Source: a virus (lineage: Duplodnaviria > Caudoviricetes). Taken from it: 64,000 nt of DNA. The stretch covers positions 1,466-65,465 of the IMG/VR virus record IMGVR_UViG_3300037264_008235. One strand, written 5' to 3'. The notes under the pieces were generated by a model that worked only from the letters and a program-made list of their open reading frames with translations, searched no databases and had not been told where the DNA came from. The position numbers were made by a program, and so were the translations under genes. This document shows positions 2,724-44,521 of this stretch, in pieces. How positions within the stretch are numbered: position 1 is the first letter of the stretch; every line of letters starts with the position of its first letter.

Positions 2724-3121
2724 CGCTGCCCTCCGGGCGCGTCGCCCAGAGGAAGCACGTCCGCCGATCCGGCGTCGGGAACGACCGGGTCCGGAGCCGG
2801 GTTGAGGACCGCCGCGACCGCGCCGGCGAGCTGCTGAAGGACCTGGAGCGGGAGGACGTCGACGTTCTCTCTCGAGAACTCGATCGCCTTCCCGTTGTGG
2901 TCGAGGACCCCGTCCCAGCCGACCAGGAGCCGGTGCACGAGCTCGAGCCCGGGCCGGACGAGGTCCGCTCCTTCGGTCGACGCCTGGTCACGGAAGTCCA
3001 GCAGCTCCGTCGCCGTCCAGGAGCGGAACCGGAAAACAGCCTGGTCCTCCGGCTTCGCCCCCTCCGGGAACCTGATCTCGATCGGGGACTCGCGCGTCCC
3101 CACGGGGACTCTGAACGCCAT
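2714..3121 (-). CDS. Tail assembly chaperone (gpG-like)
   Basis: Between tail tube and TMP; LVGWDGVLD..IEFS motif typical of chaperones; ends in slippery site. Confidence 0.75.
   Translation of the reverse strand: MAFRVPVGTRESPIEIRFPEGAKPEDQAVFRFRSWTATELLDFRDQASTEGADLVRPGLELVHRLLVGWDGVLDHNGKAIEFSRENVDVLPLQVLQQLAGAVAAVLNPAPDPVVPDAGSADVLPLGDAPGGQRPN
2717..2723 (-). promoter_or_regulatory. Programmed -1 frameshift heptamer C CCA AAC
   Basis: X XXY YYZ heptamer in phase immediately before the TGA of 2714..3121. Confidence 0.75.
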
Positions 3122-3162
3122 CTTTCTCGCCTCCGAATTAAGGGAAGAAGGTCAGGACCGGG

Positions 3163-5118
3163 TCAAGAGTAGAGAGAGGACTGGGGCACGGCCCAGAGGA
3201 TCGGCTGCACGCCGGTCGTGGCCTCCGCCTCCCAGGCGACCTCCTGGCTGGTGATGTCTCCCGGCCCGCCGGCGAAGGGCGCCGTCGTGACCTGGAAGGA
3301 CGGGACGAAGAGCTCGATCGCGACGCTGTAGATCTGCGTGGACGCCGCCGTCCACGCGTAGAGCGTCCCGTTACCCGCGCCGCGCCCCTGGATCGTGAGG
3401 GCGACCGAGAGCGTGGTGACCGTGATCCCGCTGCCGTCCGCGGTGACCGCGACCGCGCTCCCGCCAACGGTCAGCGAGAGCTGGAAGTCATTCGCCGTGG
3501 CCGCGATCACGTAGTAGGTCGTGTTCGCGGTGAACCCGGCCGGGGGCGCCGCGAGGACCACGGCCTGCCCGTTCACCAGCCCGTGAGCCGTCTTCGTGAA
3601 CAGGTCTCCCACGTCCGTGGCGCTCACGGCCGTCAGGACGAGCTCGGCCGCGATCGCGGCGACGGTGATGACCTCCGCCTTCGCCGGCGTCCCGGACGCG
3701 CGGAGGAGGAGCGTGTCCCCGGCCATCATCCCGCCCGCCCCGCCGACGGACTGGACCCAGGTCTGGGTCCCGGTCCCGTCGCTGGTGATGTCGATCGCGG
3801 CGCCGCCCTTGGTCAGCGCGAGCTTGAACTTGTCGACCGTCCGGTCGCGAACGTAGTAGGTCAGACCCGCGATCAGCGGCGCGGGGAGCGTCGTCGTGGT
3901 CTGGACGGTGACGGCCTGGTCGTTCTGCAGCCCGTGGCTGGTCGACGTCAGGAAGTCGTCCGTCGCGAACGCCGTGGTGAACACGCCCGACCCGGCGGTC
4001 TGCCGGAGCGGGAGGAACATCGTCGTCGCGCCGGCGGCGAGGTTGTTCACGGTGCTCAGAAGCCGGCTGGTCCGGTGGAACCCGCAGACGCGGAGCCGGC
4101 CAACCGTCTGGTTCCGGATCATCGAGAGGTAGCGGGTGTTCGTCGGGTTGATCCGGAACGTCCCGCTGACCCGCTGGATCCCCGCGGCGAGACCGGTGAC
4201 CAGCGACTTCATGCGGCCGGCGTCGGTCGGGCTCCCGTCGACGTCGACCTCCCGGCCCTGCTGCTGGAGCGCCTGGTCGACCACGATCGTGAACGCGAGC
4301 GCGGAGCTCACGAGCGAGTCCGCCGGCGCCGGCGCCGTGTCGTCCCGCGCCTCGAAATAGGCGGTCAGGAACGTGAACCCCTTCGCGGCCGGGAGGACCG
4401 GAGCAGCCGGCGTCGCGGGGTTCGCGACCTCGCTGTCCTTCTGCGCGCGCCAGTCGACCGCGCAGAGGATGTCCGGGTTCCCGCCCCCCCGCTCCGCGCT
4501 GAAGGTTACCCGGCCCGCCTTCGCTCCCACGTTGAGGAGCGTCGTGTCCGTTCCCATCCCCGAGAAGTGCTTGATCGCGAACGAGTCCGTCTCGGAGTTG
4601 GTCCGGCGGAGGATCGCGTCGATCACCGGCGCCGAGTTGTCCGGGTAGAGGATCACCCGGATCGTCCCCTGTACGTTGTACTCGGTCGCGAGCCGCTCCG
4701 GCGCCTCGAGGCTCCCGACCTGGCGAACGACCTCGGTGAACGACGGCTGAGGGTAGAGCCCGAACCCGTCGTTCTCGACGCAGAGGACGATCGGGTCCGG
4801 CGTGACCGTGTTGGGCGGCGTCCCGACCGACGCCATCGCGATCGCGGTCCCGCCCTTCGTCGCCGCGACCGTGAACGTGTCCGCGTCCACGACGGAGACG
4901 ACGTAGTAGCGGGTCCCGCCCGTCAGGGCCGCGGGGAGCCCGCCGCCGGCGGTGAAGATCACGCCGCGCCCGGCCCGGAGCCCGTGCCCGACGACGACCA
5001 CGTTCGGGCTGCCGCCGCCCGTGAACGTGACCGAGATCGGGTCGAAACCGCGCCCGTCCCCGTAGAGCGACTCCTTCGTCCCGCCCATGGTGGTGAAACG
5101 TCCGAAACCGGAAGGCAT
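3163..5118 (-). CDS. Major tail (tube) protein with three inserted beta-rich modules
   Basis: Gene order; tube-like segments (VQGTIRVILYP, VSGTFRI, IELFVPSFQVT); three HGL..YYV..GG modules. Confidence 0.75.
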   Translation of the reverse strand: MPSGFGRFTTMGGTKESLYGDGRGFDPISVTFTGGGSPNVVVVGHGLRAGRGVIFTAGGGLPAALTGGTRYYVVSVVDADTFTVAATKGGTAIAMASVGTPPNTVTPDPIVLCVENDGFGLYPQPSFTEVVRQVGSLEAPERLATEYNVQGTIRVILYPDNSAPVIDAILRRTNSETDSFAIKHFSGMGTDTTLLNVGAKAGRVTFSAERGGGNPDILCAVDWRAQKDSEVANPATPAAPVLPAAKGFTFLTAYFEARDDTAPAPADSLVSSALAFTIVVDQALQQQGREVDVDGSPTDAGRMKSLVTGLAAGIQRVSGTFRINPTNTRYLSMIRNQTVGRLRVCGFHRTSRLLSTVNNLAAGATTMFLPLRQTAGSGVFTTAFATDDFLTSTSHGLQNDQAVTVQTTTTLPAPLIAGLTYYVRDRTVDKFKLALTKGGAAIDITSDGTGTQTWVQSVGGAGGMMAGDTLLLRASGTPAKAEVITVAAIAAELVLTAVSATDVGDLFTKTAHGLVNGQAVVLAAPPAGFTANTTYYVIAATANDFQLSLTVGGSAVAVTADGSGITVTTLSVALTIQGRGAGNGTLYAWTAASTQIYSVAIELFVPSFQVTTAPFAGGPGDITSQEVAWEAEATTGVQPILWAVPQSSLYS

Positions 5119-32952: not shown

Positions 32953-33297
32953 GTGAAGACGTATCACGGCCACAGAGAGAACGGGTGTCTGAACGTGTTC
33001 GTGACCGCGGCCGGCCTGAAGCGGCCGCTCAAGCATCATGTCCACCACTCGCCGGACGGTTTCGAGTGCGGGTACGGCGGGTCCGGCCCGGCGGACCTCG
33101 CGCTCGCGCTCGCGGCCGACGCGATCGGGGCGGAGCGGGAGCGGGTGAGAATCTTTCAGGGAGAAGTCGGGCGCCGAGCCTGGGACGCGCACATGCGGGT
33201 CAAGGCGGAACTGGTCACGACGCTGCCCAGGGACGGCGACTGGACGATCTTCGAGAGTGAGGTCCTGGCCTCGATCGCGCGCGTGGAGCAGAAATGA
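32953..33297 (+). CDS. DUF6166-like protein
   Basis: HSPDGFECGYGGSGPADLALAL. Confidence 0.7.
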   Translation: MKTYHGHRENGCLNVFVTAAGLKRPLKHHVHHSPDGFECGYGGSGPADLALALAADAIGAERERVRIFQGEVGRRAWDAHMRVKAELVTTLPRDGDWTIFESEVLASIARVEQK

Positions 33298-33571
33298 GGA
33301 CCGGCGGCGGGGCCGACTCGGGATCCGGTCTGCTCGGAGTAACGCCCCGTCAGGCTTCTCGGGACCTCTGGCGTCCCCGCCGCCGCTTCCTTTCCGGTAT
33401 TCCCGGAGGTCCGCGCGCCGTCCCCGGCGCTCGGTCTGTCCCACGGCCCGGTCTCTCCGGGCGGTCGCGGGCCTCCTCTCTGTTCCTCCAGTCGCGCCGC
33501 GTTCCGGCTTCCTCTTCCGTCCGGAGCGCGAGTCGGTACAATACCTACCAGGCGGCGGCGGCTGGTTCGAC

Positions 33572-35611
33572 ATGACGTCCACGACTGCGGCGGCGTCCCA
33601 CTTGCTCGACACCTGCGGGCGGTTCCTCTCGCTCGGCCTGACCAAGGAGGGCCGGCGCTTCGACGCGTCGGTCCGCCTCCTCGCCACGGGGGAGCAGGAC
33701 CCGTCTCCGCCGCTCCACCTCGTCCGCTCCCTCTCCGACCTCGACGAGTCCCGCTCCTACGTGAAGGGCCGGCACCCGAAACCACGCTGGGCCGTCGCCG
33801 GGACCTGGGTCGCCGCCGCCGCGCTCCGCTCGGCCTGGGGCGAGCTGGCCCGGTTCCGCGGCGTCCGGTTCAAGGACGGGACCGAGCGGCCGGCCGCGGA
33901 GGCGGAGGCGCTCTGGCGCGCCTGCCTCGCCCGCGTCGACGCGTGGGAGGACCGCCCGCTGATCGTCGCCGAGTTCAAGGGCGCCGGCGTGGTCCCGGAG
34001 GTCCCCGGCTTCGAGCAGCCGGAGGGCGCGGTCCTCGGCGCCCACCAGATCGCGTCGCTCGCGTTCCTGGACGGCCGCTCCGCGCTCCTCTTCCAGGACA
34101 AAGGGACCGGCAAGACGGCCGTCGCCGCCGCGCTCGCGTCCCTGATCGCGCGGCGCCGCGCCGGGAAGAGTTCGCGCCTGCCGGGCGACGCGCGCGAGAT
34201 CGGGACCCGCGTCCTGGTCCTCTGCCCGCCCCAGGTCCGGACCAACTGGGTCGCCGAGATCCCGCGGTTCTGCTCCGTCCCGTCGCTCGCGCGCGTGCTC
34301 CGCGGGGACCGACTCGCGCGCGCCCGCCAGCTCGCCTCCTCCGTCTTCTGGTCCGACCTCTTCCCGGCGGCGCTCGCCTCGTTCTTGATCTGCTCCTACG
34401 AGACGGCCGGGACCTCGACCCTCGAGGACCTCCTCCGCGTCGAGTGGGACCTCCTGGTCTGCGACGAGTCCCACGCGTTCAAGGACCCGTCCACGCGGCG
34501 GTGGCGGACGGTCCGCGCGCTCCGCGACCGGAGCCGGCAGGCGCTCGGCCTGACCGGGTCCCCGATCGGGAACAGCTTCGCGGACCTCTGGACGCAGTTC
34601 GAGCTCTGCGGCTCCGGCGAGTCCGGGTTCATGAGCTCGCGCCACTTCCGGAAGCGGTACGGGAAGTACCTGCCGGTCGCGGGGGTCCCCGGCGTCGAGC
34701 GCCTCGTCGGCATGAAGAACGTCCCCGAGCTGCAGAAGACGGTCGCGCGCCTGGCGTTCGTCCTGACGAAGCCGGAGGCCGGCCTGTCCCTGCCGGAGAA
34801 GATCCGCGACCAGTGGGAGGTCGGGCTCGGCCCGCGCGCGCGCGCCGCCTACGAGTCGATGCGCGAGTTCCTGGTCGTCCGGCTCGCCGAGGACGAGGCC
34901 GACGCGCGCGCCGCCGGCCGCGTGCTCACCGTCGAGTCCTCCCTGGTCAAGCTGCTCCGCCTCGCGCAGATCACGTCCGGGCACGTCGCCTGGGATCCCG
35001 AGTTTCCCGCCGGAGAGGACGGCGAGCTCGAGGAGCGGACGGTCGAGCAGCTCGACGACCCGAACCCGAAGGTCGAGGCGGTCCTCGAGATACTGGGCGC
35101 CGAGGACCGGGACCCGCAGGGGAAGACGATCGTCTGGGCCTGCTGGCGCGAGGACCTCCGCGCGCTCTCCGCGCGCCTGGACGCGGCCGGGATCGACCAC
35201 GTCTCCTACCACGGCGGCGTGGACTTCGACGACCGGGAGGAGGCCGTCCGGCGCTTCAACGAGGACCGGCTCTGCCGCGTCTTCGTGGCGAACCAGCAGA
35301 CCGCCGGCGAGGGCCTGAACCTCGTCGGCTACGACCTCAAGAACCCGCGGGGGTCCCGGACCTACGCGGACCATGAGATCTTCTTCTCGCAGGGATGGAG
35401 CTCGATCATGCGTTCCCAGGCGGAGGACCGGGCCCACCGGCGCGGGACGCGCGTCCAGCTCCGGATCACCGACCTCGTCGCGCCCGGGACGATCGACGAG
35501 GAGATCCGCGAGCGCGTGACGGAGAAGCTGGAGACCGCCGAGCGGCTGACCGACCTCCGCGGTCTGCTCGACAGCGTCCTCCGGAAGTCGCTGGGAGGGC
35601 CCGACGAGTGA
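33572..35611 (+). CDS. SNF2-family helicase
   Basis: DKGTGKT, CDESH, LTGSP, GEGLNL, QAEDRAHRRG. Confidence 0.88.
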   Translation: MTSTTAAASHLLDTCGRFLSLGLTKEGRRFDASVRLLATGEQDPSPPLHLVRSLSDLDESRSYVKGRHPKPRWAVAGTWVAAAALRSAWGELARFRGVRFKDGTERPAAEAEALWRACLARVDAWEDRPLIVAEFKGAGVVPEVPGFEQPEGAVLGAHQIASLAFLDGRSALLFQDKGTGKTAVAAALASLIARRRAGKSSRLPGDAREIGTRVLVLCPPQVRTNWVAEIPRFCSVPSLARVLRGDRLARARQLASSVFWSDLFPAALASFLICSYETAGTSTLEDLLRVEWDLLVCDESHAFKDPSTRRWRTVRALRDRSRQALGLTGSPIGNSFADLWTQFELCGSGESGFMSSRHFRKRYGKYLPVAGVPGVERLVGMKNVPELQKTVARLAFVLTKPEAGLSLPEKIRDQWEVGLGPRARAAYESMREFLVVRLAEDEADARAAGRVLTVESSLVKLLRLAQITSGHVAWDPEFPAGEDGELEERTVEQLDDPNPKVEAVLEILGAEDRDPQGKTIVWACWREDLRALSARLDAAGIDHVSYHGGVDFDDREEAVRRFNEDRLCRVFVANQQTAGEGLNLVGYDLKNPRGSRTYADHEIFFSQGWSSIMRSQAEDRAHRRGTRVQLRITDLVAPGTIDEEIRERVTEKLETAERLTDLRGLLDSVLRKSLGGPDE

Positions 35612-37864: not shown

Positions 37865-39225
37865 GCTACGCGACCTTCCTGGAGCGAAAGTCGAACGTCG
37901 GGGCACGCGAGGGCTTCGATCCGATCTGGATGCCCGACTTCCTCTTCCCGTTCCAGGTCGCACTTGCTGAGTGGGCGATCCAGCGCGGACGTGCCGCGAT
38001 CTTCGCGGACTGCGGCCTGGGCAAAACGGCGATACAACTCGTGTGGGCCGAGAACGTCGCCCGGAAGACCGACGGCCGCGTGCTCCTCCTGACCCCGCTC
38101 GCGGTCGCGCAACAGACCATCCGCGAGGCGGAGAAGTTCGGGATCGAGGCGCACCGCTCGGTTGCCGGGGAGTTGCGGGGGCGCATCGTGGTCACGAACT
38201 ACGAGCGCCTCCACCACTTCAACCCGGAGGACTTCTCCGGAGTCGTCTGCGACGAGAGCAGCATTCTCAAGTCGTACGACGGGGTCCGACGCGCCGCCAT
38301 TACCGGGTTCATGCGGAAGACGCACTACCGCCTCCTTTGCACTGCGACAGCGGCACCAAACGACTACGTTGAGCTGGGCACGTCCAGCGAAGCGCTCGGG
38401 CATCTCGGGCACGTGGACATGCTCAATCGGTTCTTCGTGAACAACCGGAACAACTCGGCTGTGGGTGGGCGCCACCACCGCGAGACGATCCAATGGCGCT
38501 TCAAGGGACATGCGGAGGCTCCATTCTGGCGCTGGGTCTGCTCTTGGGCGCGCGCGTGCCGAAGCCCCTCCGACCTCGGATTCGAGGACGGGTCGTTCAT
38601 GCTGCCACCGCTCAAGGAGCGCGAGCACGTGGTCGAAGCGCGGACGCTGCGCCGCGGCGCCCTCTTCGCGCTTCCAGCGGAGAACATGCAGGAGGAGCGC
38701 GAGGAGAGGCGACGAACCATCATCGAGCGGTGCGAGAAGGTTGCAGAGCTGGTGCGCGGGAACGCGCCCGCTCTGATCTGGTGCGGTCTCAACGACGAGG
38801 GGGACTTACTCGAATCCATGATCCCGGACGCCCTCCAGGTGGCTGGCGGAGACTCCGACGAGGCCAAAGAGGAACGCCTAACCGCGTTCGCTGAGGGTCG
38901 CGTCCGCGTGCTCGTCACGAAGCCCAAGATTGGAGCCTGGGGGCTGAACCTTCAGCGGTGCGCGCACGTCGTCTTCTTCGCCACGCACAGCTTCGAGTCC
39001 TACTACCAAGGGGTCCGTCGGTGCTGGCGATTTGGGCAGACGCGCCCGGTTCTCGTGGAGACGGTGGCGACCGAGGGGGAGGCGCACATCTTGGACAACA
39101 TGCGACGGAAGTCCGCTCAGGCTGACCAGATGTTCTCGCAACTGGTCGCGCTCATGGGCGAGCAGCTTTCGATTGGGAGGCGACTCGTGGGAACCATCGC
39201 AACGGAGACACCGGCGTGGCTGTAG
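37861..39225 (+). CDS. SNF2-like helicase associated with a methylase
   Basis: FADCGLGKT, CDESSILK, TATAAPND, WGLNLQ, YYQGVRRCWRFGQ. Confidence 0.88.
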   Translation: MSYATFLERKSNVGAREGFDPIWMPDFLFPFQVALAEWAIQRGRAAIFADCGLGKTAIQLVWAENVARKTDGRVLLLTPLAVAQQTIREAEKFGIEAHRSVAGELRGRIVVTNYERLHHFNPEDFSGVVCDESSILKSYDGVRRAAITGFMRKTHYRLLCTATAAPNDYVELGTSSEALGHLGHVDMLNRFFVNNRNNSAVGGRHHRETIQWRFKGHAEAPFWRWVCSWARACRSPSDLGFEDGSFMLPPLKEREHVVEARTLRRGALFALPAENMQEEREERRRTIIERCEKVAELVRGNAPALIWCGLNDEGDLLESMIPDALQVAGGDSDEAKEERLTAFAEGRVRVLVTKPKIGAWGLNLQRCAHVVFFATHSFESYYQGVRRCWRFGQTRPVLVETVATEGEAHILDNMRRKSAQADQMFSQLVALMGEQLSIGRRLVGTIATETPAWL

Positions 39226-40184
39226 CCGAGCAGATCGTGACCGACCGCTTCGCACTCTACCTGGGCGATTCGATCGAGGTCCTGGCGGACTTGCCCGAGG
39301 AATCCGTCCACCTCAGCGTCTACAGCCCGCCGTTCGGTGGCCTCTACCACTACAGCTCCGACGATCGCGACCTGTCCAATTCGAGCGACTATGCGACCTT
39401 CTTCGAGCACTACGGCTTCCTGGTGCGTGAGAAGACGCGGGTGACAATGCCCGGACGGATGAGCGCGGTCCACGCGATGGACATCCCGTCTGGGAACACG
39501 GGCAACGACCACCTGCGCGACTTTCCGGGGGACCTGATCCGGCTCCACGAGCGCGAAGGCTGGCACTACGTCGCGCGCTACCACGTCTGGAAAGAACCGC
39601 TAGGTGTCAGGAACCGGACGTTGGCGAAGAACCTCGCGCACAAGGCGATTGTGGAAGACTCCTCGCGCTGCTCGTGTGCCAGCGCGGACTACCTCCTGAT
39701 CTTCCGGAAGCACGGGACGAACCCGGTGCCGATCGCGCACCCGCACGGGCTGATGGACTACGCGGGCGAGCGGAAGGTGCCGCAGTACCTTCTACGCTAC
39801 CGGGGCTGGCGCGGCAGCCAGATCGAGAACCGCTACTCGCACTGGATATGGCGGCAGTACGCGTCGGCCTTCTGGGACGACGTGCGCCTGGATCGCGTGC
39901 TCCCGTTCCGGCCCGCCAAGGACGAGCAGGACGAGAAGCACGTCCACCCGCTCCAGCTCGACGTGATCGAGCGCGCCATCGTCCTCTGGAGCAATCCGGG
40001 AGAGACCGTGCTCACCCCGTTCATGGGTGTCGGGAGCGAAGTCTTCGGCGCCGTGAGCCTCGGGCGCCGCGGCATCGGCGTGGAACTGAAGTCGAGCTAC
40101 TTCCGGCAGTCGGTGCGGAACCTGGAGCTCGTGGGCGTCGCAAAGGATCAACAAGCGAGTCTGTTTCATGACACAGCCGAGTAG
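39216..40184 (+). CDS. DNA N4-cytosine/N6-adenine methyltransferase (beta class)
   Basis: SPPF catalytic motif, HVHPLQL, VLTPFMGVGS SAM motif. Confidence 0.9.
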   Translation: MAVAEQIVTDRFALYLGDSIEVLADLPEESVHLSVYSPPFGGLYHYSSDDRDLSNSSDYATFFEHYGFLVREKTRVTMPGRMSAVHAMDIPSGNTGNDHLRDFPGDLIRLHEREGWHYVARYHVWKEPLGVRNRTLAKNLAHKAIVEDSSRCSCASADYLLIFRKHGTNPVPIAHPHGLMDYAGERKVPQYLLRYRGWRGSQIENRYSHWIWRQYASAFWDDVRLDRVLPFRPAKDEQDEKHVHPLQLDVIERAIVLWSNPGETVLTPFMGVGSEVFGAVSLGRRGIGVELKSSYFRQSVRNLELVGVAKDQQASLFHDTAE

Positions 40185-40205: not shown

Positions 40206-40700
40206 GTGAGTGACAAGCATGTGGCTCCTCCCGCCTCCCGTTGCCTCCGGCTCGGGACGTCGGAGGGCGGCGCGTTCCTCTCCAAGCGCGCCGGCCGCGC
40301 ATTCCTCGGCTACCTGACCGCCCAGCGCGAGAGGCTCCTCGGGCTCCGCGGCCAGCGGGACGTCCGGCGCGAGCACCTCGCCTCCGAGCACGGCTACGAC
40401 ACGAAGTACGCCATGCACGCGCTCCGCCTCGGGTTCCAGGGAGTCGAGTTCCTGACCGGGCGCGGGCGCCTGACGCTCCCGATGAGGGAGAGCACGCGCG
40501 CCCTGCTGATGAGCGTCCGCCGCGGGGAGCTGGAGCTCGCGGACGCGACGGGCCGGATCCTCGCCCTCGAGCTCGCGATCGAGGCGCTCCTCTGCTCGAG
40601 CCCCGCCTGCATCCCCGACGAGCCGGACCGGGCGCGGATCGACCGGCTCCTGGTCGGGTGCTACGCGGACCACTGGCGCGCGCGGGGACTCCTCCCGTGA
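40206..40700 (+). pseudogene. C-terminal half of a predicted nucleotidyltransferase (RlaP/YcgL-like), catalytic N-terminus absent
   Basis: FLSK..FLGY..Q, GYDTKYAMHALRL; no GS..YG / DxD motif; 5' end resembles the start of the C5-MTase gene. Confidence 0.6.
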
Positions 40701-41977: not shown

Positions 41978-42508
41978 GTGAAGACGCTCGCCCGCTGCCT
42001 CACCTCTCCGCTCCTCCTCCCGACGGCGCTCGCCGCGCTGCTCCTCCTCTCCCGCCCGGCGGGCGCCCAGCTCGAGGCGCGGCACCTCGTCCGGCGGGAC
42101 GGGCCGGCGTCCGCGCTCGCGTCGCTCGACCTGGCGAACCGCGGGCCGGACCCGTTCCGGATCCTCGTCGTCTCCTTCGTCGGCCCGCCGGCGGAGCTCG
42201 TCGCCGTCCTCCCGCCACCGCTCAACCAGCAGCGGGTCGGGGACGGTACGGTCTCCGTCGTCGACCTCGGGACGCTCGCGCCGGGCGCCGAGGCGACCGT
42301 CCTCGTCCGCGTCGCCCTCTCCTCCGCCCGCGAGTGGGCCCACGCCGTCCTCCTGGACGCGGAGAACGTCCGCACGGGCGCGCGGGTCTGCGAGCGCCGC
42401 GACGCGCCGGTCACGGAGACCGCCGTCCCGTTCGCGGACGCGCGGACGCTGGTCGTGCTCGCGCTCGCGCTCGGCGCCGCGCTCTGGTGGAAGACGAGGC
42501 GGCCGTGA
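41978..42508 (+). CDS. Secreted protein with IPTL/PEP-CTERM-like C-terminal anchor
   Basis: Signal peptide ..PAGA-Q; ends VPFADARTLVVLALALGAALWWKTRRP. Confidence 0.6.
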   Translation: MKTLARCLTSPLLLPTALAALLLLSRPAGAQLEARHLVRRDGPASALASLDLANRGPDPFRILVVSFVGPPAELVAVLPPPLNQQRVGDGTVSVVDLGTLAPGAEATVLVRVALSSAREWAHAVLLDAENVRTGARVCERRDAPVTETAVPFADARTLVVLALALGAALWWKTRRP

Positions 42509-42815
42509 GGCTGAACCTGACCGTCCAGGCCCGGACCGCCGCGGTCGTCGAGGAGCTGAAGAACGGAGACCCCTCGGTCGTCGTCCTCCGCCACCTCCAG
42601 CTCTGCGCGGCCGACGCGCTCCGCTCCCTGGCGCGCGCGTTCGACGACGCCGCGCAGACGGAGAGCGAGGCCGCGTTCGCCACCTACGGGGACGACCCGG
42701 AGACGCCGTGGCCGGAGTGTGTCGTCGCGTCCGTCCGGCGCGCGAACTCCTGCGCCTCGGCCGCGCGCGCGACGGCCGACGCCCTCGACCGCGCGGCGGC
42801 GCGGGACGGTTTCTG

Positions 42816-43952
42816 ATGTGGCTCCTCCCGCCGTCCGCTGCCTCTCTCTGTTCTCCGGGCTCGACGGTCTCTTTGCTGGACTCCGCCGCGCGCTTCCCGG
42901 AGCGCGTCTTGTGGCTTGCGCGGAACGGGAAGCCTTCCCCGCGGCCGCTCTCCTGGCCCGGATGGAAGACGCGTCCCTGGAGCCGTGTCCTGTTTTCTGC
43001 GGCGACGTCCGGGAGGTGGACTGGCGCGGCTGGGCCGGAGCCGTGGACCTCGTCCTCGCCGGCTGGCCCTGCCCGCCGGTCTCCCTCGCCGGCAAGCGGC
43101 TCGGCCGGAAGGACGAGCGGTGGCTCTGGCCGGAGGTCACGCGCGCCCTTCGCGAGACTGGCGCCGGATGGCTCCTGGCAGAGAACGTGCGCGGCCTCCT
43201 ATCTGCCGACGATGGAGCCGCCTTCGGAGAGGTTCTCGGGGACCTGGCCGGTCTCGGGTTCGATGCGGAGTGGGACGTGTTCAGCGCGGCTGAGGTCGGA
43301 TCGTCCCAGCGGCGCGAGCGAGTGTTCCTCCTGGCCCGCTCCCGACGCGTCGGAGGCGGGCTCGAACCGGAGCGCCTCCTCCGGAGCTGCCGAGCGGCCC
43401 GCGATCGCGACGGCCGCGCGGAGCTGGGCCAGCCCGCGGACGGTGGACGGGAAGTACCGGGACGGGAAGGGCGGGCGCTTCCTGACGCTCGAGGGGCAGG
43501 CGACGGCGCTCTGGCCGAGCCCGATCGCGTCGGACGCGGAGAAGGGGGTCGACCGGCGCTTCGACCGCAACCCGACGCTCCTCGGCGCGGCGCGGGACTG
43601 GCCGACGCCGGGCGTCCCGAACGGGGGGCGCACGCTGCCTCCGGGGACGAGCCGGACGGGAGTCGTCCCGGACGGGCGGCAGCGGCAGGTGGACCTCCGG
43701 CGCGAGGCCGCGCTCTGGCCGGCGCCGGTCGCGAGCGACGCGCGGAGCGGGGAGGCGTCGGAGGCGACGGCGCGGAAGAACAGCCGGCCGCTCCGCGAGA
43801 CGGCGCTCCGCGCGCTGCCTTCCCTCCTGGACCGAACGAGCACGAGAAATGGAGCAGAATCTGCGCCCTCCGTTACGACCTCGCGCCAGCGCTTGAATCC
43901 CCGCTTCGTGTCCGTGCTGATGGGACTCCCTTACTGGTGGACGGAGATCTGA
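42816..43952 (+). CDS. Overlapping MTase beta-type polypeptide (TRD-like repeats and motif IX-like end)
   Basis: Five WPxP..SD-like repeats; ends RLNPRFVSVLMGLPYWWT. Confidence 0.65.
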   Translation: MWLLPPSAASLCSPGSTVSLLDSAARFPERVLWLARNGKPSPRPLSWPGWKTRPWSRVLFSAATSGRWTGAAGPEPWTSSSPAGPARRSPSPASGSAGRTSGGSGRRSRAPFARLAPDGSWQRTCAASYLPTMEPPSERFSGTWPVSGSMRSGTCSARLRSDRPSGASECSSWPAPDASEAGSNRSASSGAAERPAIATAARSWASPRTVDGKYRDGKGGRFLTLEGQATALWPSPIASDAEKGVDRRFDRNPTLLGAARDWPTPGVPNGGRTLPPGTSRTGVVPDGRQRQVDLRREAALWPAPVASDARSGEASEATARKNSRPLRETALRALPSLLDRTSTRNGAESAPSVTTSRQRLNPRFVSVLMGLPYWWTEI

Positions 43953-44521
43953 ACCGTGAAGAGGTGCCGGTCCTGCGGAGCGGAGTTGGCTCAGAAGAGG
44001 TTCCGCAGCGGAGTGCTCGAGGCTCCGTGCATGATGAAGCGGCGGGTCTACTGCGACCGGACCTGCATGGCGGCAGGGATGATGAAGCCGGTCTCCGCGT
44101 TGACGCGCTCTGGGCTCTTGGTTCGGGCTCGCCGGCATTTGAAGTCGCGCTGCGAGCGTTGCGGGACGTCTCAGCGTCTTGGAATCCACCACGCCGACGG
44201 CGACTGGAGGAACAACTCACCGCACAACCTGATCACGTTCTGCGCTTCTTGTCATACGCGGCACCACCACGAGCGTGGGGACATCGTTCCGCGGAGGATT
44301 CCGAGGTCCTGTCCGGTGTGCGGGCGGCGTTTCTGGCCGAGCGGTTTCAAACCCCGGACGTGCTCTCGCTTCTGCGGGCAGGCTCTCAGACACAGGCGCG
44401 CCTCCGGGCGATGAGCCGAGATGACCGCCTGCTCCGACTACGCGCGCTGGGCAACGCGGTCGTCCCTGACTGCGCGGCCCGGGCCTTCCTGACGCTCCTC
44501 CCCCGCCTCCTGGAGCCGTAA
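42818..44521 (+). CDS. C5-cytosine DNA methyltransferase, alpha-type frame (motifs I-VIII and X)
   Basis: SLFSG, AGWPC, ENV, QRRERVF, LRALGNAVV. Confidence 0.85.
   Translation: MAPPAVRCLSLFSGLDGLFAGLRRALPGARLVACAEREAFPAAALLARMEDASLEPCPVFCGDVREVDWRGWAGAVDLVLAGWPCPPVSLAGKRLGRKDERWLWPEVTRALRETGAGWLLAENVRGLLSADDGAAFGEVLGDLAGLGFDAEWDVFSAAEVGSSQRRERVFLLARSRRVGGGLEPERLLRSCRAARDRDGRAELGQPADGGREVPGREGRALPDARGAGDGALAEPDRVGRGEGGRPALRPQPDAPRRGAGLADAGRPERGAHAASGDEPDGSRPGRAAAAGGPPARGRALAGAGRERRAERGGVGGDGAEEQPAAPRDGAPRAAFPPGPNEHEKWSRICALRYDLAPALESPLRVRADGTPLLVDGDLNREEVPVLRSGVGSEEVPQRSARGSVHDEAAGLLRPDLHGGRDDEAGLRVDALWALGSGSPAFEVALRALRDVSASWNPPRRRRLEEQLTAQPDHVLRFLSYAAPPRAWGHRSAEDSEVLSGVRAAFLAERFQTPDVLSLLRAGSQTQARLRAMSRDDRLLRLRALGNAVVPDCAARAFLTLLPRLLEP
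43956..44414 (+). CDS. HNH endonuclease overprinted within the MTase ORF
   Basis: CERCG..LGIHHADGDWRNNSPHNLITFCASCH; additional CxxC motifs. Confidence 0.8.
   Translation: MKRCRSCGAELAQKRFRSGVLEAPCMMKRRVYCDRTCMAAGMMKPVSALTRSGLLVRARRHLKSRCERCGTSQRLGIHHADGDWRNNSPHNLITFCASCHTRHHHERGDIVPRRIPRSCPVCGRRFWPSGFKPRTCSRFCGQALRHRRASGR

Follow-up and report, generated by a model that had tools for sequence, protein, structure and literature searches.

A probable two-polypeptide C5 DNA methyltransferase encoded in completely overlapping reading frames of a Caudoviricetes virus record

Two reading frames over one methyltransferase locus

The DNA that was analysed, here called the window, is a stretch of 64,000 nucleotides (positions 1,466 to 65,465) of the IMG/VR virus record IMGVR_UViG_3300037264_008235, which belongs to the Caudoviricetes. 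The record is 65,465 bases long, is about 76% complete, and has a guanine plus cytosine (GC) content of about 71%. The subject is a pair of overlapping open reading frames (ORFs) that probably encode two parts of one C5 DNA methyltransferase. The features of this locus are on the plus strand. An upstream ORF (42334-42816) is terminated by the TGA (42814-42816) of the heptamer TGATGTG (42814-42820). The same heptamer contains an ATG (42816) that opens frame B and a GTG (42818) that opens frame A. These adjacent starts had been pointed out in an original prediction made from the letters alone, and they can be read directly in the sequence. Frame B holds the beta ORF (42816-43952, stop codon at 43950-43952). 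It encodes 378 amino acids and consists of an overprinted N-terminal part, five WxxP repeats, and a motif IX-like end. Frame A holds the alpha ORF (42818-44521), which encodes 567 amino acids plus a stop. It contains motifs I to VIII, an unconserved linker, an FPPGP..W block, a read-through of a putative HNH gene, and motif X. The original prediction had placed the genes at 42814-43952. This stands for the end of frame B, but frame A continues to 44521, 570 bases further.

The catalytic part of alpha (42818-43345) carries motifs I, IV (PC), VI (ENV), and VIII (QRRER). Alpha residues 7-173 match PF00145 over positions 2-160 of the 324 in the profile (E 1.2e-28, 101 bits against a cut-off of 22), and the protein also matches the M.HhaI and M.HaeIII chains of the PDB (E 4e-25). 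The distal half of the PF00145 profile has no match anywhere in frame A. With the usual motif names and consensus patterns of C5 methyltransferases, motifs I (FxGxG), IV (PC), VI (ENV), VIII (QxRxR), and X (GNxVxP) are all found within the frame A chain, as had been proposed for the GTG frame. Motif X lies in a C-terminal piece (44411-44521) that includes LGNAVVP at 44447-44467. It is located beyond a putative HNH ORF (43956-44414). Neither this gene nor the break in frame A seen in a minority of relatives had been mentioned in the original prediction. The invariant residues of alpha are G14, P84, C85, E122, N123, V124, R166, R168, G545, and N546; within the C-terminal piece V548 and P550 are invariant as well. 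The window protein keeps every invariant column of a 50-sequence alpha alignment.

In frame A, motifs VIII and X are not separated by a recognition region and motif IX. The stretch from motif VIII to FPPGP is conserved at the null level and is predicted to be disordered, and a motif IX-like segment is present in frame B instead. This middle part of alpha (43346-43819) is open, and the repeats of beta lie on the identical bases. To be open despite null-level conservation is as expected for a linker. Conservation of frame A returns in the FPPGP..W..LAP..RADG..LVD block (43820-43945), at P337, P339, W345, and P361. When alpha alone was modelled with AlphaFold2 (AF2), the predicted local distance difference test (pLDDT) score was 84-97 for residues 1-200, below 50 for residues 201-335, and about 90 for the motif X helix. 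AF2 also placed helices, with a pLDDT of about 75, at alpha residues 439-480 (44132-44257), which are read from the alternative frame of the HNH gene. These may be an artefact of an Arg/Ala-rich sequence.

Frame B is open for 378 codons with five W(P/A)xP repeats, as had been predicted. The five sites (WPAP, WASP, WPSP, WPTP, and WPAP) are at residues 173, 204, 233, 262, and 301, within 43332-43727, and their tryptophan codons begin at 43332, 43425, 43512, 43599, and 43716. The W and P columns of the repeats are nearly invariant across beta alignments, and all strictly invariant columns are kept in the window. Among 131 homologues the number of repeats ranges from 0 to 6 and correlates with protein length (r = 0.71). 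Multispecific phage C5 methyltransferases carry several tandem recognition domains, one for each target. The original prediction had suggested that the repeats act as target-recognition units of a possibly multispecific enzyme; the data that bear on this are the repeat count and its correlation with length, and it stays a conjecture. Beta ends in ...RLNPRFVSVLMGLPYWWTEI, and its motif IX-like segment, RLNPRFVSVLMGLPYWWT (43890-43943), has L, N, P, L, M, G, P, and W invariant in 50 sequences. AF2 gave this segment a pLDDT of 88/70. The GC content at third positions of frame B is 0.95-1.00 over 43420-43840. Beta matches phrog_1008, which is annotated as 'DNA methyltransferase' (E 1.8e-21), and no family was matched in Pfam or NCBIfam. 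A feature search of the ESM Atlas with beta led to PF00145 clusters (score 0.94). It was given no weight because translating a real gene in the wrong frame may yield a score similar to that of the gene's family.

Both frames and both starts are conserved in relatives

A search with the frame B protein retrieved 21 proteins, of which many are full-length and start with M(x)WL. Three wider scans were then available for comparison. With the frame B alignment as the query, a relative was encoded in 341 of 596 candidate stretches of viral contigs and in 246 of 600 stretches from a scan of one genome per species. With the frame A alignment as the query, 567 of 598 stretches of viral contigs encoded one. 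From each scan 80 loci were kept for analysis. The loci from the genomes range from Micavibrio, Bdellovibrionales, and Chloroflexota to Bacteroidota, Leptospira, and Akkermansia. The catalytic frame equals the beta frame plus 2 bases in 79 of 80 viral loci, in the Burkholderia phage phi1026b, and in all 80 bacterial or archaeal loci. The odd viral locus, L061, has frame changes in both of its matches. A sequencing error that shifted the frame in the window was rejected as an explanation, since the two-frame layout recurs in related loci.

The viral loci selected with alpha were chosen by likeness to frame A only and are therefore free of bias towards beta. The motif IX-like segment is in the +1 frame in 78 of the 79 that could be evaluated, out of 80. 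The original prediction depended on the ATG frame being kept open in homologues, and this is what was found: in 76 of the 80, frame A runs unbroken through motif IX, as does frame B across the entire catalytic part. Frame B is broken in L171, frame A stops after motif VIII in L242, L239 is cut by the end of its contig, and L234 is the remaining exception. The last was considered as a possible same-frame split and dropped, as its contig contains ambiguous bases and both frames shift together.

Both frames are also open in bacterial loci of about 50% GC. The same layout is present in gp67 of phi1026b, the Synechococcus phage Yong-M2-251, the Enterobacter plasmid pTO42E, and the Paenibacillus phage Mock2, where the gene has a GC content of 0.48. 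The RefSeq or GenBank records of Mock2, Yong-M2-251, and pTO42E annotate the frame A protein only. In Mock2 (L165) beta is an internal ORF of 236 codons (1342-2052) that starts about 60 codons into the annotated methyltransferase, not beside the start of alpha. In phi1026b (L001, 1760-3880) the beta frame has no stop ahead of an annotated ParB gene in the same frame (3059-3880), and three related records of Burkholderia phages give the name chromosome partitioning protein to the feature on which the beta match falls. This continuity is either a beta-ParB fusion or an artefact of annotation.

The start codons of the two frames are adjacent in at least 123 of 131 family loci. The arrangement of the window, NTG-TGG with a frame A GTG at +2, is shared by 38 of the 131 members, and in 85 a frame A ATG, TTG, or GTG lies 4 nucleotides upstream of the frame B start. 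In this set the frame B start codon is ATG in 103, GTG in 16, and TTG in 13, and a Shine-Dalgarno-like tetramer is found 5-18 nucleotides upstream in 73 loci.

In the window, each of the six frames contains stretches of 600-1400 codons that are free of stops. Double openness does not exceed chance in the window alone, at 74% GC, and the significance comes from the homologues. The null was a permutation of synonymous codons within each locus, which preserves the protein and its codon usage. It was applied to 15 non-redundant loci with less than 60% identity in the catalytic part. Over that part, frame B has 0 stops against 29.5 expected in total, and the product of the probabilities of no stop is 10^-18.4. 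Over the rest of beta, frame A has 0 stops in 9 of the 15 loci (10^-20.6). Five others have 1-2 stops that are frame A's own terminal stops, about 13 nucleotides before the end of frame B, and the sixth is L055, which belongs to the minority layout described below. The shuffles expect 3-8 stops in homologue frames where none occur. Mock2, pTO42E, and Yong-M2-251 gave shuffle P values of 0-0.018 in both directions.

Each frame has its own conserved segments. In the catalytic part the identity of frame A is 0.46. Frame B there is conserved beyond what the constraint on alpha would predict, with an identity of 0.290 against 0.226 when the shuffles of the null are restricted to those without a stop in frame B (z = 22.6) and a mean BLOSUM62 score of 0.81 against 0.22. 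It was therefore rejected that the N-terminal part of beta is a shadow of alpha. Over the repeats the identity of frame B is 0.24-0.40 and frame A is at the null (0.10-0.24 against 0.10-0.20). From the FPPGP..W block through motif X frame A is again above the null, and around motif IX it is B that has the higher identity of the two frames (0.61 against 0.41). A mere shadow was likewise rejected for the middle and end of beta, where frame B identity is 0.24-0.61 with frame A at the null and third-position GC is 0.95-1.0. Motif VIII of alpha (R.R.F.LA) overlies the first S-S-W-P of beta, and the same bases are conserved in both frames. The leucine of motif VIII always has an xTG codon, even at 50% GC, which preserves the tryptophan of beta.

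A profile built from the repeats and the motif IX-like segment of beta matched 36,808 cluster representatives at E <= 1e-3, 18,499 at 1e-10, and 1,360 at 1e-30. In the top 149 representatives, local hidden Markov models built from the family alignments detected the alpha catalytic domain in the same chain in 2 and a beta-type N-terminus in 86. A Pfam scan, which covered 10 of the 149, identified PF00145 only in P0080. Two long representatives, P0026 and P0028 (885 and 903 amino acids), have 4-5 matched stretches and no Pfam family.

The nested putative HNH gene and loci with a divided frame A

The putative HNH endonuclease ORF (43956-44414) encodes 152 amino acids in the frame of beta and has a GGAG 9 nucleotides before its GTG. 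It matches phrog_1271 (E 8.7e-14). With 16-17.5 bits, the Pfam families HNH, HNH_2, and HNH_3 stay under their cut-offs (21-25), and the H-H..N..H pattern is visible in the translation. Alignment with 49 homologues places the insertion between (R)VD and RLR of alpha, directly after the GWT of beta. This is the end of the conserved coding of beta, as the beta tail in other loci is not conserved by itself. Among the 240 further family loci that were compared, none carries an insertion here, and no close relative of the HNH protein was found in viral contigs, where there was 1 weak match. Free-standing HNH homing endonuclease genes split phage genes and carry their own ribosome-binding site. The HNH ORF of the window resembles these in having its own ribosome-binding site inside a conserved phage gene, and it differs in that its site is empty in the other family loci and that it has no close HNH relative.

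Frame A has 0 stops across the HNH ORF where 3.5 are expected (P = 0.012), and the third frame has 8. This suggests that alpha is still read through. It is also possible, judging from the ATG at 44411 that overlaps the HNH stop (ATGA), that a separate 36-amino acid piece with motif X starts there. The beta stop is followed one codon later, in the same frame, by the HNH start (TGA ACC GTG, 43950-43958). Read-through of the beta stop would fuse beta to the endonuclease, and this placement may be a coincidence. A group I intron or intein that carries the HNH ORF and splices frame B to motif X was set aside on the comparison of homologues. Splicing is not needed because homologues free of the insertion show the identical change from frame B to frame A at this point.

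A minority of loci, from four lineages (L055, L017/L026/L045, L101, and L242), have frame A closed right after motif VIII. The stop is five codons after FILAY, where a TGA is formed by the xxT-GAC of beta (L055 3531; L017 3489; L101 3034; L242). In the middle of these loci stops are at the level of chance, with 9-15 observed and 10.6-12.9 expected. What persists in that frame is an ORF that has its own ATG and codes for FPPGP..W and motif X, and L055 has an AGGA upstream of it. Since frame A is closed and motif X is retained, a continuous alpha is not universal. The large domain can apparently be delivered in two pieces, and these loci resemble a three-piece version of the enzyme. The linker of the majority may then be a tether, or a means to translate motif X without a separate start.

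The window has a second DNA methyltransferase gene of another type at 39216-40184, 2.6 kb upstream (phrog_67, E 2.5e-32). It sits in a replication module with a helicase (33257-35611, phrog_62) and a nucleotidyltransferase (40206-40700).

A candidate two-polypeptide methyltransferase and its alternatives

The original prediction had proposed a heteromeric enzyme with a motif IX subunit encoded in an alternative frame. The two-frame conservation across the family, the conservation of both starts, and a complex model with controls support this. The full alpha of the window and beta residues 160-378 were co-folded with their own alignments and three controls. The interface score ipSAE (interaction prediction score from aligned errors) was 0.85, 0.84, and 0.84, and the best of the 3 controls reached 0.05. 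The runs agree in at least 37% of contacts, and the pLDDT of the partner is only 34-39 (at least 33). The confident interface is between beta 357-378 and alpha 15-20, 40-53, 157-164, 331-336, 354-361, and 537-551. In the model, the motif IX-like helix of beta packs on motifs I, VIII, and X, as well as on the FPPGP block, of alpha.

According to the account in PMC3404938, solved C5 methyltransferases have a large domain with motifs I-VIII plus X, and a small domain with the variable region and motif IX. Frame A holds exactly the parts of the large domain, and frame B appears to hold exactly those of the small domain. The locus thus probably encodes a two-polypeptide C5 DNA methyltransferase of the M.EcoHK31I kind, with complete overlap and adjacent starts, as judged from the sequences and the complex model. 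In such an enzyme one mRNA would be read in two frames from adjacent start codons behind one ribosome-binding site. Alpha would supply the large catalytic domain, its N-terminal portion carrying motifs I-VIII and its C-terminal portion motif X. The linker between them would be arbitrary sequence, an alternative reading of the beta repeats and, in the phage of the window, of the nested HNH gene. Beta would supply what lies between motifs VIII and X, which is a recognition region built of repeats and a motif IX-like helix that packs against motifs I, VIII, and X of alpha. The HNH gene would be a later insertion at the only point between the end of the functional coding of beta and motif X of alpha. 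Both proteins would presumably be translated, bind each other, and be jointly needed for methylation.

M.EcoHK31I, from E. coli, is a C5 methyltransferase made of two polypeptides (Lee, Kam and Shaw 1995, as cited in PMC2836561 and PMC3404938). In the descriptions given there, its alpha gene contains the coding sequence of beta in a different frame, and the enzyme is active only with both polypeptides (PMC2836561, PMC3404938). The likeness, by description, is an alpha that carries motifs I-VIII plus X, and a beta in the other frame that has motif IX in M.EcoHK31I and a motif IX-like segment in the window. As far as these descriptions go, there are differences. The beta of the window spans the conserved length of alpha (378 amino acids) and starts 2 nucleotides before it, not internally. 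The recognition domain of M.EcoHK31I was predicted to be in alpha, whereas the window has conserved repeats at the position of the recognition domain in beta. The nested HNH gene is a further difference. The internal beta start of Mock2 is nearer to the published description than the layout of the window. M.AquI, as described in PMC3404938, is a natural C5 methyltransferase split within the variable region. The minority loci, with an alpha that stops after motif VIII, resemble its large subunit. Its small subunit holds motifs IX and X, whereas motif X of the window is in the catalytic frame and the overlap of the two genes is complete. By published accounts, phages and bacteria have long overlapping genes in which two frames are likewise read from one strand, with selection visible in both. 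The window differs in that its products appear to be parts of one enzyme, in the overlap of about 1.1 kb, and in the conservation across phyla. A literature search, with most subscription journals outside its coverage, found no description of a family-wide two-frame C5 methyltransferase, of a complete overlap with adjacent starts, or of conserved repeats in a second frame.

Several observations weigh against a two-polypeptide enzyme at this locus. The window alone is not beyond chance in the shuffles, with P = 0.24 for frame B over the N-terminal part of frame A and P = 0.16 for frame A being open over the middle of beta. A near-invariant Q of motif IV is replaced by P in its alpha (PCPP), which also has an insertion of 163 residues before motif X. 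The closure of frame A in the minority loci is another such point. Beta alone folds poorly (AF2 mean pLDDT 49). Its end had been said to resemble motif IX; the pattern and the docking model agree with this, but profile and sequence searches of the PDB and Pfam with beta gave no link to a known motif IX or to methyltransferases. Only about the last 22 residues of beta are confidently placed in the complex model, and the repeats are not. Among solved complexes 58 of 80 come up to this ipSAE mark, and among mismatched pairs 2 of 110 do; these counts are only rough with user-supplied alignments. Likeness to solved single-chain methyltransferases may also explain why the model passed.

Other explanations can be considered for the same data. 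The order of motifs across the two frames is exactly canonical, and a single chain could be made by two programmed ribosomal frameshifts, one from A to B (+1) after motif VIII and one from B to A (-1) after motif IX. Motifs I-VIII, recognition region, IX, and X would thereby regain their usual order, and such shifts would fit the loci in which frame A is closed mid-way yet motif X is kept. They would also fit the 2 of 149 representatives with alpha and beta parts in one chain. Frameshifting appears quite unlikely, however. It requires neither that frame B is open from a shared start nor that frame A is open mid-way, and both are kept where 3-8 stops are expected. Frame B is conserved from its start codon onward, and conservation of the FPPGP..W block, which lies upstream of motif IX, is in frame A. 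Motif VIII and the first W-P of beta are conserved on shared bases and so cannot both be present in a single chain. No common slippery heptamer was seen in 7 junctions judged by eye, with no systematic scan, and the place where the second shift would have to occur is precisely where the HNH gene lies.

Alpha could alternatively be active by itself, with the FPPGP..RADG..RVD block as a minimal recognition region. Beta would then be an overprinted protein with another role, for example as a regulator or a modifier of specificity. Over its full length the alpha of L083 aligns with phrog_363, a family of short phage methyltransferases (profile positions 50-315 of 327), and beta is without detectable homology to known methyltransferase parts. 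Against this, the motif IX-like segment accompanies alpha in all but one of the evaluable alpha-selected loci, so that no close relative lacking beta was found. The motif IX region is better conserved in frame B, and the docking model sets the beta helix between motifs I and X. An alpha that is active alone is thus considered unlikely. It is also rather improbable that the enzyme of the window is a crippled, decaying copy of a two-frame family, with alpha split by the HNH insertion and motif IV altered. Such decay would agree with the insertion between RVD and RLR, with the P at the near-invariant Q, and with the TIGR00675 (dcm) score of 86.7 bits, below the cut-off of 100.65, which the alpha of L083 passes with 103.3. 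However, the window retains all invariant columns in both alignments, and frame A is open through the HNH gene. In addition, the HNH stop is overlapped by an ATG from which a separate piece with motif X could start, and motif X is still docked in the model.

If the two-polypeptide reading holds for the family as well, the window would represent a very large and essentially unannotated class of C5 methyltransferases of phages, plasmids, and bacteria. In this class a second protein would form the small domain, with recognition region and motif IX; its gene, read in the +1 frame from an adjacent start, would cover the gene for the large domain completely. The balance tips slightly towards such a class. 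Few prokaryotic gene pairs that overlap on the same strand would then be longer or more widespread, and predictions of specificity for these enzymes would read the wrong frame. Annotation pipelines call one ORF of the two, so the recognition part of a large enzyme family would be invisible and prediction of the target from the annotated protein would be misleading. Natural split methyltransferases have served as scaffolds for targeted methylation, as mentioned in PMC2836561. Provided that both frames are translated, two conserved proteins that join into one enzyme would be encoded in about 1.1 kb of DNA, and the locus would be a clean natural system for the co-evolution of two frames, with one ribosome-binding site feeding two starts. 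The arrangement is kept from Paenibacillus phages to Alphaproteobacteria, and M.EcoHK31I, the single known precedent, would be the tip of a large family.

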